Shown here: positions 17,513 through 60,746 of the stretch, one piece after another
How positions within the stretch are numbered: position 1 is the stretch's first letter
Layout of the letters: each line of letters starts with the position of its first letter
Origin: Eledone cirrhosa
Lineage: Eukaryota
DNA length: 64,000 nucleotides
Direction of reading: 5' to 3'
NCBI GenBank assembly: GCA_964016885.1
Contig: OZ024750.1
Location: 19,158,001-19,222,000 of the forward strand
Notes under the pieces: generated by a model
The model's database searches: none
Seen by the model: only the letters and a program-made list of their open reading frames with translations
What the model was told of the DNA's origin: nothing
Translations under genes and position numbers: made by a program

Positions 17513-17702
17513 ATAGGAAAAAGTATGACCCCGGCGGCGGAGCTCAAGCCGTTTCGACGGCTATTTCTGGAAATAGCCGTCGAAACGGCTTTAGCTCTGC
17601 CGTCGGGGTTATACTTTTTTCTATTACCCACTCTACTACCCTAAGTATTGAGTACTCTGGTGCGTTATGGTCCATCTGGTTCCTTACCACAACTCCTTCG
17701 TT
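17513..17702 (+). mobile_element. Fold-back miniature element A (half-hammerhead hairpin + ~78-bp tail)
   Basis: Hairpin 17513-17624 centred on gacggctatttc-tg-gaaatagccgtc; tail tacccactctactacc...ccttcgtt; (TA)n flanks. Homologs at 28937, 35912 and 60526. Confidence 0.85.
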
Positions 17703-18109
17703 ATATATATACATACATATATATATATATACGCACACACACGGATGCGCACACATGCACACACACACACACACACACACACACATATATATATTCATAT
17801 ATATATTCATATATATATATGTGTATATATATATATATTCTTATGCAAGAAATAACTCATGCTTTGAATGATGTGACATCTTGGCTTGCTAATTCTCAGA
17901 ATATATTCAGAATATAAGTTCAACTGGAATTCAGACATCCATTGCTTGTAATAATCGTTATCGTAGCACTGGGATCAAAGCCAAAATTTACAGGCATTGC
18001 GATATATTATCATCCAATCGATTCCAATGCATTGTTGTGCATTTGTTTATTCGATTCATTTCGAAAGAAAAATTGCTTCACTTTAATCATGTTCAACCTT
18101 AGTTCCGAC

Positions 18110-18410
18110 AACTAAATGTTCCAGTTGTTTTATCAATGAATTAACCTGATCATAAAATCAGCGAGTAAGTGAATGAACACCCTACAAAGTCACGTGTACC
18201 TTTAGCATAATTTCAAAGAGATTCAGCATGACTCAGTGGGTAATAAGGTTGGCCCTTTGAACCAAAGGACCAACCCATTTTTTTCAACTGAGCAGATTGG
18301 AGTAATGGGAAGTAAAGTATCTTGATCAAGGACAAAACACGCTACCGAGAATAGAACTCATGGGCTTAATATCGGAAGGCGAACATCTTAACCACAAACC
18401 AGGTGCCCCA
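18110..18410 (-). mobile_element. Old SINE-like repeat fragment
   Basis: Shares gtcacgtgtacc-ttagc/aattt and ggccctttgaa motifs with decayed repeats at 19900-20330, 48320-48430 and 50085-50205. Confidence 0.45.
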
Positions 18411-18441
18411 ACATCTACAGACGTACAGACATACACTATAG

Positions 18442-18632
18442 CAGGGTCCCCCGAGGGCCATATGGGTCACATATGTGTTGTCTGAGGGCCACACATGACA
18501 ACTACTTGCGCACATTACAACTAATATTTTTTACTTCATATTGCGCTCGCGCTGTAAAAACACTTGTGCGGGCCGCATGTTTGCTTGTAAGGGACCGCAT
18601 CTGTCACACGGGCCGCATGTTTGACATGCCTG
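18442..18632. mobile_element. hAT (Charlie-like) MITE
   Basis: Termini CAGG...CCTG, right TIR gtttgacatgcctg, subterminal gggccgc repeats; 8-bp TSD cactatag (18434-18441) / caccatag (18633-18640). Confidence 0.75.
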
Positions 18633-19410
18633 CACCATAGCACAGTATATATCGTAGTATAATCTCCCCAACCCTATGGACGGTGGTGTTTCTGCTAGTT
18701 TTGTTAATGATATCAACATAGCTATGTAATTATTTGAAATTTGAATGTTTCTCATCCACTGCAAATATTTCTTCATCGTTCTTCTTCTTCTTCTTCTTCT
18801 AAATCACTCTTTTTAATACGATCATTCTTTTCTTATTCCTGTTCTTTCATAGTGTCTTTTATATTATAAATTCCCAATCTTCTCCTGGATCAGATAACTT
18901 GATAGCCAATATTGTCTCCGAACTAAACACCACAGAAAATAATAACACGAGAACAAAAAACAGTAGATATACTAAGCTAAAGTAGCATCTAGAAGAAACA
19001 CTATATTTTTATAATGTTTATTATTAATTTGTTGTTGTTAATCGTTATTCAGGGATTTTGTTTCTTTATTTACAGATTTGACTGTTGTGCTGGACATTGT
19101 TACTGAAAATGTCTTGGTTGCTAAGATACTAATGTATGGAGGGGAAAAAAATAACTAATTTCTCACAAACAACATTCTTTCTAATTCCTGAGTTATTGAG
19201 CATATCTGTAATACAAACATGTGGAAACGACAACAGAAAAACATATTTAATATCAATATTTTAACTTGATGGCGGGGATGAGGATGATGATGATGACGAT
19301 GATGATGACGATGATGATGATGGTGAGGGTGATGGTGATGATGACGATGATGGTGATGGTGATGAACTTGATGATGATGATGATAATGATGAAGTTGATG
19401 ATAATAATAA

Positions 19411-19603
19411 TTGTTTCTACTTTAGGCACAAGGCCAGCAATTACCCAGTGCATTACTGGTACTTTATTTTATCGACCCCCGTAAGGATGAAAGGCAAAGT
19501 TAACCTCGGCGGGATTTGAACTCAGACTATAAAGGGCCGTAACTCTTGGCTGTTAAGCATGGCGTCCGACCCTCTACCTACCGATACTGCCAATCCACCG
19601 CCC
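19411..19603 (-). mobile_element. tRNA-derived SINE (Meta-domain-like core)
   Basis: A box tggcagtatcgg, B box gagttcaaatcc, core gcctttcatccttacggggtcgataaaataaagtaccag, tail ggccttgtgcctaaagtagaaacaatta; embedded in (GAT)n. Confidence 0.9.
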
Positions 19604-57382: not shown

Positions 57383-57570
57383 TGTTTCTACTTTTGGTAC
57401 AAGGCCAGCAAATTACCCAGTACATTACTGGTACTTTATTTTATCGACCTCCGTAAGGATGAAAGGCAAAGTTAACCTCGACGGGATTTGAACTCTCACC
57501 GTAATGGGACGTAACTATGCTAGAAAGCATGGCGTCCAACCCTCAACCGATACTGCCAATTCACCGCCCT
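57383..57570 (-). mobile_element. tRNA-derived SINE with 16-bp TSD
   Basis: TSD tgcatcttttcataat at 57367-57382 and 57571-57586. Confidence 0.95.
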
Positions 57571-57619
57571 TGCATCTTTTCATAATGCGGCTATGAGAGC
57601 TTCGCGATATATAATCCGC

Positions 57620-57885
57620 CTACTCTTGTCCCGAATTCATATCCCTTCGAGCGAGGTCAACTTTCTCCATCTAGGTCAGGTAAAATAAAATACTAGTCGT
57701 GTATTAGAATTGTTTTACTCGGTTAACATTTCTACATTTGTGGCCTATTGTATGTTTTAGACACCAACATCAACTTTGGTTTTCATACTTCCGTGCTCTA
57801 TAAAATAAAGTACTAGTCACCTACTGGACTAGATTTACTTCACTGTCTCCCTATCTACATTTGTGGCCTTGTTCATATATCAGAA
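57620..57885 (+). mobile_element. Two decayed SINE fragments in tandem
   Basis: caacttt...taaaataaa.tactagtc...ctacatttgtggcct occurs twice. Confidence 0.6.
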
Positions 57886-59687
57886 ATGGCTATGGGACTA
57901 GGAGATGGTTGTGCTTCCTACGAATATTCAATGGTGAGAATTCTCAGTATAAATTCTGTGTTACGAAATTTAACTCTTAACGTCCTTACCCAATCAAACG
58001 ACATTGTCAAAAGTATAAGCACCACTATGTCTACATTATATAAGACATTTAAAAATTTTCTTCAGTTTACTGAAAACCTTTACAAAGATTTCTCCAAAAG
58101 TACAGATAAGATAAACATTTGAATTAACAAGCCACATGAAATCATATATACAAGATATTCTTGAAAAGTACAAATCAGCACTTTGACTCCATCACATTCA
58201 AAATTTGCTCTGCTACAGCAAATTTCCACAACAATTCGTTCTCCACTAAAATGATATAAACATTTGAATTAACAAACCACCTAGAACCACATTAAAGGAC
58301 AGAGGTAGAGATATTTTCATCATTCGAGTTCATTTTTTCCATGCTTGCTCGTGTTGGACGATGCACAGAGATTATCCCGGTTCCATGAGTGTTAACTGAC
58401 CGAGAGTAGACAAGAGACCGTTGCATGAGTTATCCTCATGCCACTGGTACTCCTTGTCAGAGAAGTCAATTGCATTAACGCCTGGAAATGAAACCTACGA
58501 ACTTTTAATCTCAAGAAAAACACCGTAAACACGTAATAGTTCACACAAACTTTCAAAGGAAGAAATTATTATTTTTAAATGCCAACAGCAGAATTTGCAT
58601 ACTACATCAATTTATATTTAAGCAGAATAAAATAATAAGATTTAAAAATAAATGTAAAATCAATGTGTTTTACTGCATGGAAAAGAAATACATACACACA
58701 CACATGTATGTATACATGTATGTATATATGTACGCATGTATGTATTTATGTATACATGCATGTATATATACACACACACACACACGCATATATATATATA
58801 TATATATATATATATATATATATATATATACCTATCTATGTACACACACATATACATATATGTATGTAAATATATAAGTATGTAAATATATATATATATA
58901 TATATATATATATATATATATATATACATACATACATACATACATACATACATACATACATACATACATACATACATACATACATACATACATACATACA
59001 TACATACATATATGTATGTATGTAAATATATATATATGTAAATATATATGTATGTATGCCCGAAATGTATATATATATATATATATATATATATATATAT
59101 ATATATATATATATATATATATATATATATGTATATATATACACATTTCGGGCATAGGGTGTTTTTCAAGATGGAGAAGAGAGATAATAAGTAAGTAATT
59201 TGAAAAGTAAGTATTCTGTGTGATATTATCAGCATGTCATGTAATAACATGTAATAATGGATGAAAGAAGGGAATAGAATAAGTAGATGTGTCGTTTATT
59301 ACAATTGACTCATCGCTAATAACATCAGAAGGACATTTTTTTCCCTCATCTTATTATCTCTATTCTCTATCTTGACAAATAGCCTATTCCATTCTATAAA
59401 CATTGATATATAGTTTTCCTTTTCCTCACACCAAAATACATTTACTCTAGATATATTTTAAAGCATTTTTATTCTATTCATCTATTGGATAATGTTTGGT
59501 GACGTCATTCTGGACTTCTGGGTTTTATAATATATTATGATTTTTTTCAACACGCTGACGTGTATATGTATATGTTTGGTAGCAGCCTGCATCAGACATA
59601 AAGAAAGAGAAGTAGTATGAGGTTGTTATAACAACTGTGGTAGCAACCTGCATCAGTGAATGTTAGAAACTGTTTTCTCTAGTTTGT

Positions 59688-60248
59688 CACCACCCCTTCC
59701 TTCCTCAATCATCTCTAGTGTGTTACATCATCAACCCGTCCTTCCTTAAGCATCTCTAGTGTGTGACGTCATCACCTCTTCCTTCTTCAATCATCTCTAG
59801 TGCGTGATGTCATCACCCCTTCCTTCCTCAATCATCTCTAGTGTGTTACATCATCGACCCGTCCTTCCTTAAGTATCTCTAGTGTGTGACGTCATCACCT
59901 CTTCCTTCTTCAATCATCTCTAGTGCGTGACGTCATCACCCCTTCCTTCTTCAATCATCTCTAGTGTGTTGCGTCATCAACCCGTCCTTCCTTAATCATC
60001 TCTAGTACGTGACATCATCACCCCTTCCTTCCTTAATCATCTCTAGTGTGTGACGTCATCACCCCTTCCTTCCTCAATCATCTCTAGTGCGCGACGTCAT
60101 CACCCCTTCCTTCCGCAATCATCTCTAGTGTGTGACGTCTTTACCCTTTCCTTCCTCAATAATATCCAGTGTGTGACGTCATCACCCCTTCCTTCCTCAA
60201 TCATCTCTAGTGTGTGACCTCATCACCCCTTCCTTCCTCAATCATCTA
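59688..60248. repeat. 41-bp minisatellite, about 13.5 units, with a 3-unit higher-order pattern at its left end
   Basis: Unit catcaccccttccttcctcaatcatctctagtgtgtgacgt; no unique spacers. Confidence 0.95.
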
Positions 60249-60525
60249 TATGTGATTAAAGATAAGCGGTATTGTAATAATATATTTCTAGGATATAATT
60301 TCATAAATGTTCAGCATATATGTACAAATGACATTGATGTTTAAATGTATGAATATCTTTGAAGAAATAACCATCTACAGGGAAAAATGTAGGGTTAGAA
60401 GGCAGGATCTTGAAGTTGGACTTCTCATCGTATCAACATGACTGAGATAGGAAGTGAATTGTGTGTATGGCTGTATGTGTCAATTTGAAAGTGGTATATA
60501 TATATATATATATATATATATATAT

Positions 60526-60746
60526 AACGAAGGAAATGTGGTAAGGAACCAGGTGGACCATAATGCACCAAAGTACTCAATACTTAGGGTAGTAGAGTGG
60601 GTAATAGGAACGAGTAGGACCCCGACTGCTGAGCTCAAGCCGTTTCGACGGCTAATTCTGGACGCAGAATTAGCCGTCCAGAATTAGTCCAGAATTATCC
60701 GTCGAAACGGCTTGAGCTCAGCCGTCGGGGTCCTACTCGTTCCTAT
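60526..60746 (-). mobile_element. Fold-back miniature element D
   Basis: Reverse orientation of element A; 14-bp stem II gacggctaattctg/cagaattagccgtc with extra slipped copies; (TA)n on both sides. Confidence 0.87.

Follow-up and report, generated by a model that had tools for sequence, protein, structure and literature searches.

We analysed 64,000 nucleotides of the Eledone cirrhosa genome (contig OZ024750.1, positions 19,158,001 to 19,222,000; hereafter the window), in which four small hairpin elements, A to D (Table 1), are extremely 5'-truncated insertions of a Penelope-like element (PLE). The structure of these and of related copies makes us highly confident that the hairpins are PLE-derived, dual-primed insertions, with two head-to-head arms started at two different sites. 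The whole is probably best explained by dual priming on one RNA, run-off at the 5' ends of RNAs, and joining of the two complementary DNAs (cDNAs). An earlier inspection of the window from its letters alone (the sequence-only reading) had instead proposed a cDNA that stalls in a hammerhead ribozyme and copies itself.

The hairpins and their Penelope-like parent

The four elements are real and lie where the sequence-only reading had placed them, each consisting of a hairpin (73-143 bp) and a common tail, which is exactly 77 bp long and not about 78 bp. Element positions are counted from the last T of CCTAT at the border of hairpin and tail (0), so that the tail ends at +77 and upstream positions are negative. 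The tail of A is 86-97% identical to those of the other window copies, and a search of the whole 64-kb window found no fifth copy. (TA)n, which had been described as abutting the elements, adjoins all four tail ends and also the other end of A, B and D, whereas the other end of C lies in (GA)n; a general repeat scan of the window was dominated by (TA)n. Six further tails were found in 180 kb fetched from elsewhere in the 3.0-Gb genome, and the family likely has, as a rough figure, tens of thousands of copies.

A Penelope-like origin, a hammerhead in the terminal repeat and the existence of non-folded parents had all been correctly foreseen. Non-folded copies behind a coding remnant came to light when the inner part of a longer hairpin served as the query. 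The parent is a tandem unit of 3531 bp, and the partial tandems that define the pseudo-long terminal repeats (pLTRs) of PLEs occur with this period in up to about 4.5 units, which in one array are 99.9-100% identical. The protein of the coding remnant gave 62,533 candidates in a first look at the genome, with many open frames of 784 codons. By its motifs, a 717-amino-acid open reading frame (ORF) encodes a reverse transcriptase (RT; YRDD at 348) with a C-terminal GIY-YIG domain (VIY..YIG at 591). Among 8000 candidates there were 2049 homologues of this ORF, and the best match carries PF01541; the ORF itself matched no family in Pfam and had no significant match in a PDB sequence search. As far as motifs go, the element matches the description of the Hydra clade of PLEs: RWK appears as RLRWR at 35 (R for K), DKT lies at 117 and is present in 112 of 120 homologues, the linker CxCx5C reads CNCPDRSIC, CNLCSEE and N..CKH are the CxxC and CxH flanking E and N, and (TA)n insertion, expected for this clade, is seen in the flanks of copies. 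The CCHH motif is absent, a single cysteine lying between VIY and YIG. The Nematis and Neptune clades were rejected because the linker is CxCx5C and not CX2-5CxxC and because CCHH is absent.

The parent reads ACCCC-TTGANAA-G, a long stem II, GAAA, stem III, GTC and GGGGT, with the 5' strand of stem II (GATCGGCTA or GTTCGGCTA) at -96 to -88, a stem III of 5-6 bp and a predicted cut between -20 and -19. Judged by sequence, it has the parts of a type I hammerhead (stems I-III, the 3-8 pair, GAAA and NUH) and may act as a monomer. The type I three-way junction folded in two of three parent copies. The parent that had been predicted, acccc-CTGANGA-g, does exist but is rare: the genome-wide pattern for the C3-G8 core (CUGANGA) gave 16 matches (control, 1), of which 10 came from the Penelope-like family by eye, as against 5533 (control, 5) for the U3-A8 core (UUGA-N-AA). 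TTGANAA is present in 84 of 90 distinct complete hammerheads, in which core position 7 is G (39), A (26), C (15) or T (about 9). In the hammerhead alignment 86% of 463 cells are paired and six pairs show two-sided change; the 3-8 pair covaries (UA in 9 and CG in 3 of 15 rows, which were picked for diversity and for C3-G8). Weighing against the ribozyme, the z-scores of the parent fold were mixed (-0.3, -3.5 and +0.3). Rfam gave no match for the parent and, for the window, no hammerhead among the 150 matches shown of 247, the matches being microsatellite-driven microRNA families.

The sequence-only reading was right to see in the tail-side arm of the window copies the 3' portion of a type I hammerhead (3' strand of stem II, GAAA, stem III, GUC and GGGGU), and the 5' strand of stem I and the core are indeed missing from A to D.

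Two side observations concern the parent. L403 (1486-1607) and two more, different C3-G8 rows belong to another family, related but distinct, in which the CTGATGA core is canonical, stem III is laid out alike and the end reads CTTTCTAT-TA. In L141 (4286-4400), a long stem-loop (z = -2.1) formed by the tail together with the following 27 nt encloses the start site at +77 and is a candidate protein-binding structure.

Two arms and two start sites

A typical insertion of the family, 120 bp to 16 kb in size, has two head-to-head arms that start at +77 and at 0. In 16 long loci that were mapped, one outer end is +77 and the other 0, in either order, wherever both are visible (only one arm was seen at some loci), and both starts adjoin (TA)n and share TAT with it. 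The arms are 176 bp to 16 kb long and either may be the longer; in one array a tail arm of 280 bp faces a tail-less arm of 16 kb, the reverse case also exists, and in L152, L160 and the L141 array the tail-less arm exceeds the other by kilobases. An inverted 5'-truncated copy with a tail at one end, here of 77 bp, is the mark of a PLE insertion. The one-tail rule has an exception in L103/L104, where both head-to-head arms carry the tail and one goes past +77.

Within an insertion, the two opposite arms show 0.40 differences per kb and share private changes, compared with 4.0 differences per kb between insertions. In short copies of several subfamilies, own left and right arms agree at 0.943, compared with 0.874 between the left arms of different copies, and 40 of 43 copies are nearer to their own other arm. 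The low difference within insertions and the match of arms within copies show that both arms of an insertion come from one source. The match of diagnostic bases within a copy had thus been correctly noticed.

Short copies were sampled with tail searches, the window and the 180 kb of fetched DNA, and in this first sample of 97 both arms pile up at -50 to -65. The tail-less start of the youngest subfamily, searched as an exact pattern, then gave 4644 matches, of which 100 places, listed in order of position, were analysed (two of them, 219 bp apart, have a common junction). Eighty-six of the 100 are short (ending at or before -64), 14 end at -142 or beyond, and none ends between -65 and -141. 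The further-reaching arm ends at -54 to -64 in 77 of the 86, at -60 in 25 and at -59 in 19. A partner arm is present in 82 of the short copies, the other four being solo, and every partner is short; a long partner to a short tail-less arm was seen in none of the 82 (p = 4e-6, assuming that 14% are long). The joins are blunt in 23 cases, overlap by 1-2 nt in 26 and by more in 5, and contain inserts in 28.

We propose that reverse transcription would be primed by both strands of a nicked (TA)n target, at two sites of one RNA that are separated by 77 nt, each arm representing one of the two primings, at 0 and +77, from opposite target strands. Both cDNAs likely run off the 5' end of the RNA and are then likely linked through their 3' ends.

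According to the sequence-only reading, reverse transcription from the tail end stops at stem II, after which the cDNA folds back, is extended on its own sequence and exits at a cctat/TA microhomology; this now seems improbable. The matching of arms within copies agrees with it, as do the 39 of 82 short copies in which the tail arm reaches equally far or further and some joins that would make a small hairpin of 1-2 bp, and the available part of PMC3846280 proposes self-priming for Penelope inversions. However, the tail-less arm is longer by at least 5 nt in 26 of the 82 and by 1-4 nt in 17, and because it often reaches further it cannot generally be a copy of tail-primed cDNA. Tail-less arms also occur alone, ending at -59, -59 and -60. 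Nor is the apex hammerhead stem II, as had been supposed: the left 'gacggcta' is merely the reverse complement of the right arm, and none of the 86 short copies reaches the native 5' strand of stem II or holds the native stem. The constant cctat end is better read as the second priming site. Snap-back is largely refuted as a general route and survives only for the local formation of joins; there it also weighs against our account, since with identical cDNAs a join of cDNA on cDNA is indistinguishable from a local snap-back.

A different history, in which long head-to-head insertions came first and later lost the palindrome centre to leave stable stubs, is in our judgement quite improbable. Long palindromes are unstable, and a few copies (L007, L020 and L109) have symmetric apices at native hairpins. 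Solo arms, which are free of palindromes, nevertheless end alike (L081 and L146 at -59, L085 and L105 at -61, L149 at -63, with further solo arms in L221, L234 and L259), near-perfect palindromes of 2 kb persist (L147), and deletion leaves the base-exact walls, the added bases and the empty interval from -65 to -141 unexplained.

High copy number, small size and a terminal hairpin would also suit one ancestral fold-back amplified as a miniature inverted-repeat transposable element (MITE) or other DNA transposon, or a fold-back artefact of sequencing. This is hardly credible, being refuted by the diversity of junctions, of which 73 distinct ones occur in the 86 short copies; these, with the match of arms within copies, bear out the earlier view that the fold-backs arose independently. 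Moreover, left arms group with their own right arms, a continuous series leads up to full RT-encoding units, and contigs of public sequencing runs show the same depth steps near -60 and +77. In contigs of four such runs, depth rises near -60 and falls about 300-fold past +77, with TA-rich loose ends at 0 and +80, which speaks against an assembly artefact; the four runs represent at most two samples of one study, possibly the assembly's own sample, depth is not copy number, and contigs such as these do not reveal RNA ends. A MITE or DNA-transposon structure was likewise rejected, as the apex is variable and the ends asymmetric; a target duplication is not readable within (TA)n.

At L145, L146, L149 and L157, common (TA)n tracts hold several independent insertions of the family spaced by no more than a few hundred bases, which suggests re-targeting of flanking repeats.

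Arm ends at -60 and -19

The ends near -60 likely mark a capped transcription start inside loop II of the hammerhead. T-62, Y-61, A-60, G-59 and T-58 are 92-99% conserved in the 90 distinct complete hammerheads, while the inner helix around -60 is the least paired of six helices (75%), and a TATA-like TATTTAAA lies 30 nt upstream of A-60 in the young subfamily. A non-genomic G replaces T at -61 in 9 of 11 tail arms ending at -60, compared with 12 of 54 ending elsewhere (Fisher p = 0.0003). In older loci, arms that reach A-60 without the T carry G (11 cases, two of which are an intact subfamily variant), C (5) or A (2). We take TYAGTY around A-60 to be initiator-like, and the initiator consensus, the TATA spacing and the addition of a cap-derived G are assumed from general knowledge. 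An RNA with this start would lack the 5' half of the ribozyme, and the priming sites would lie 60 and 137 nt from its 5' end. A promoter and start site in the pLTR upstream of the tail repeat are described for Penelope in the accessible text of PMC2377424, and that of PMC3846280 notes TATA- and Inr-like motifs in rotifer pLTRs.

Several points weigh against such a start. In tail-less arms the G is found in 9 of 19 ending at -60 and in 18 of 56 ending elsewhere, together with 9 C; TATTTAAA is missing in the diverged subfamily L123; a search of public sequencing runs listed no RNA run with the element; and none of the 29 later passes described below ended at -50 to -64, where a capped RNA primed downstream should leave some. 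Splicing or trans-splicing at the AG near -59 was rejected, there being no constant upstream sequence at the joins.

Dual priming might alternatively have met a block, formed by a helix or a bound protein within a longer RNA, at -60 and perhaps at -19, which we consider unlikely. The 3' strand of the inner stem II helix lies at -65 to -56 in the young subfamily, stem III starts just 5' of -20, and the folded state of one RNA would couple the two arms as well. Against a block, the interval from -65 to -141 holds the remainder of the ribozyme, yet none of the 100 copies ends in it; TYAGT is kept, whereas the inner helix shows poor conservation; and the extra G is tied to -60. Longer copies also bear on it. 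The junction of tail and ORF occurs at 234 places, and at 50 loci that were looked at, only 3 of 29 passes of arms that had already run at least 1.5 kb ended at or before -64 (at -46, -20 and +28), compared with 86 of 100 first passes; four of the 29 passes come from one array, and two loci that could not be resolved were excluded. A stall at a helix is disfavoured because a helix stopping first passes should also stop second passes. No full-length arm ends at -60, and long copies therefore come from other templates.

Jumps seen among 16 loci that were selected for short or unresolved upstream ends are consistent with the run-off of cDNA. In nine of these loci the arm runs to -57 to -63 and then resumes at +142 to +898, and the second run goes no further than -63 in the eight of these nine that are resolved. 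Two run to -19 and resume at +216 or +525, with second stops at +4 and -17, and five have other patterns. After run-off, the enzyme would sometimes jump to a downstream point of the RNA and run to the same end again. The jumps could also be read as internal deletions, although the repeated stop at one boundary fits the end of an RNA, and this RNA extends into the ORF. Long and tandem copies would derive from RNAs without a nearby 5' end, which could arise as uncleaved read-through transcripts, by end-to-end jumping or as circles. These three are not separable, since the divergence of tandem units (0.48 per kb) resembles that of opposite arms.

A second wall lies at -19. A pattern for two very short arms, which allowed 12 more bases beyond -19, gave 235 matches and none in the control; it samples tiny copies only, and yields no exact share of all insertions. 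By eye, 77 of 100 listed rows of the 235 stop at -19/-20 (both arms in 51), 8 extend past it and 15 fall short of it. By script, 30 of the first 40 rows end at -19/-20 (22 with both arms), 5 go beyond and 5 are shorter; 12 of these 40 are pinned to -19/-19 by one to six inserted bases, mostly A, T or ATT. L352, a near-full-length copy, starts at -20/-19. We think it very likely that -19 is the 5' end left by self-cleavage of the hammerhead at its predicted cut, because reverse transcription of the 3' product of the ribozyme would leave such ends. Two points weigh against this: a stall at the base of stem III, near -19, is the remaining alternative, and plain CCCC-GGGG joins are ambiguous by 1-2 nt.

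Taken further, these ends suggest an arrangement that we regard as possible rather than probable, in which the element has its promoter inside loop II of its own hammerhead and one tandem transcript gives rise to three templates. Capped mRNA without a working 5' ribozyme would be primed in cis to give hairpin stubs similar to strong-stop DNA, which make up most copies; linear monomers cut by the ribozyme would give the -19 stubs; and circular or end-to-end-jumped monomers would give full-length and tandem copies.

Known systems and the rest of the window

The inverted arm, the one-sided tail, the hammerhead and its U3-A8 form, the Hydra clade and the idea of a circular template are already in print. 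Hydra-clade elements are described in the accessible text of PMC8557442 as generally under 3 kb, with a canonical hammerhead and (TA)n insertion, and its supplement contains Hydra-1_Obim (2507 bp, (TA)n). Our element shares with them the C-terminal GIY-YIG, RW(K/R), DKT, CxCx5C, CxxC/CxH, the lack of CCHH, (TA)n and a hammerhead. It differs from that description in its unit of 3531 bp, a mostly U3-A8 core and a long stem II, and its dominant product, a hairpin of about 190 bp, was not found in the part of the Hydra-clade description available to us. Typical PLE insertions, as far as the same source and PMC3846280 describe them, combine a 5'-truncated copy in inverted orientation with a tail of 30-40 bp at one end. 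The head-to-head inverted arm, the tail on one arm, partial tandems and TATA- and Inr-like pLTR motifs are common to both; the passages concerned invoke self-priming for the inversion and resolution by the endonuclease for the tail, whereas here two primings on one RNA would account for them and the tail is 77 bp.

For PAc, a Poseidon element of the green anole, cutting and extension of both target strands, with two RNA sites bounding the tail, are described in vitro (PMC11167929). The AT-rich target, the use of both strands and the two RT starts bounding the tail are alike, and PAc is a predicted dimer. Hammerhead cleavage was dispensable for PAc in vitro, with no reads ending at the cut, whereas one class of genomic copies here ends at the predicted cut, and the consulted part of the PAc description does not link the two start sites to head-to-head arms. 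The U3-A8 hammerhead is a variant published for Cercyon PLEs, with the same core covariation and with ribozyme pairs on opposite strands (PMC4209133). The accessible portion of that paper also proposes circular RNA as the template of PLE tandems, and states that evidence in vivo is absent. Non-LTR retrozymes, as outlined in the parts of PMC7229834 and bioRxiv 10.64898/2026.07.22.740005 available, resemble our L351 array, a tandem of 299-bp hammerhead units. A to D were rejected as non-LTR retrozymes, since each is a lone hairpin without the ribozyme's 5' half and not a tandem; L351 does agree with them in sequence. L351 (G000:C2:356028501-356033500) consists of about 7.5 near-identical 299-bp tandem units flanked by (TA)n, each with a complete hammerhead with a shortened loop II, the tail and the ORF start, and by these features appears to be a retrozyme-like derivative of the Penelope-like element.

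In L1 twin priming, two target strands prime on one RNA and non-overlapping parts of it are inverted, whereas here the same segment is copied twice. Retroviral minus-strand strong-stop DNA is a run-off cDNA from a primer near the 5' end of the RNA, whereas here the run-off product itself is integrated.

We found no report of PLE copies that end at the ribozyme cut or at a start site, nor of coupled arm ends, in the literature searched, which included few subscription papers. The origin of inverted arms, tails and tandems of PLEs and hammerhead cutting in vivo are treated as open questions in the available parts of PMC8557442, PMC4209133, PMC2377424 and PMC11167929. The element is of a known kind; its dominant product is distinctive, and its copies keep a record of the mechanism that can be tested. 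Since the family is young and has open ORFs and thousands of near-identical copies, every step can be cast as a prediction exact to the base: RNA should be capped at -60/-64 and carry a 5'-OH at -19, and priming should take place from opposite strands at 0 and +77. The proposed mechanism would account for a small repeat of very high abundance that one would otherwise class as a MITE or as a hairpin of unknown kind. If the arrangement with three templates is true, the genome holds a base-resolution record of hammerhead cleavage in vivo and of twin priming of the Penelope type, and also of how pLTR tandems are regenerated.

Within the window (Table 1), A, C and D appear to belong to the -60 class, and B to be a shortened copy. 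The -60/-54 join of C recurs in 4 of the 86 short young copies.

Table 1. Window positions of elements A to D and their parts
Feature	Position	Strand	Remarks
Element A	17513-17701	+	Hairpin and 77-bp tail
A, tail-less inverted arm	17513-17571	-	Element 0 to -58
A, tail-side arm	17570-17624	+	-54 to 0; 2-nt overlap (GA) with inverted arm; contains stem II 3' strand, GAAA (17582-17585), stem III, GUC, stem I 3' strand
A, predicted ribozyme cut	between 17604 and 17605	+	
A, tail	17625-17701	+	+1 to +77, then (TA)n
Element B	28937-29086	+	Hairpin and 77-bp tail
B, hairpin	28937-29009		Diverged subfamily; without stem II
B, inverted arm	28937-28958		Stops at GACCCC (cut-site equivalent), or stem III lost
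B, apex	about -44 (element position)		Palindrome TTTCGAAA
B, tail	29010-29086	+	77 bp
Element C	about 35910-36102	+	Hairpin and 77-bp tail
C, tail-less inverted arm	35910-35970	-	Ends at -60; (GA)n blurs left end
C, tail-side arm	35971-36025	+	-54 to 0; blunt join
C, tail	36026-36102	+	77 bp, then (TA)n
Element D	60527-60746	-	Hairpin and 77-bp tail
D, tail-less inverted arm	60684-60746	+	0 to -62; element sense strand is - here
D, join insert	60664-60683		20 nt, copied from the arm's own nearby sequence
D, tail-side arm	60604-60663	-	-59 to 0
D, tail	60527-60603	-	77 bp, then (TA)n

Other sequence in the window includes a large inverted duplication at 1-9016, the arms of which (1-2906 and 6124-9016) are 99% complementary; it contains a long interspersed nuclear element (LINE) with endonuclease and RT and an upstream cysteine/histidine-rich ORF, and its centre is a long TA/TACA repeat. 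At 10101-13844 (- strand), an open frame of 1247 codons with endonuclease, RT and C-terminal zinc-finger-like motifs, which we take to be RTE-like, is apparently a young intact LINE. At 50926-51015, about 90 bp form a perfect palindrome with unique arms and a (TA)n run at its centre.

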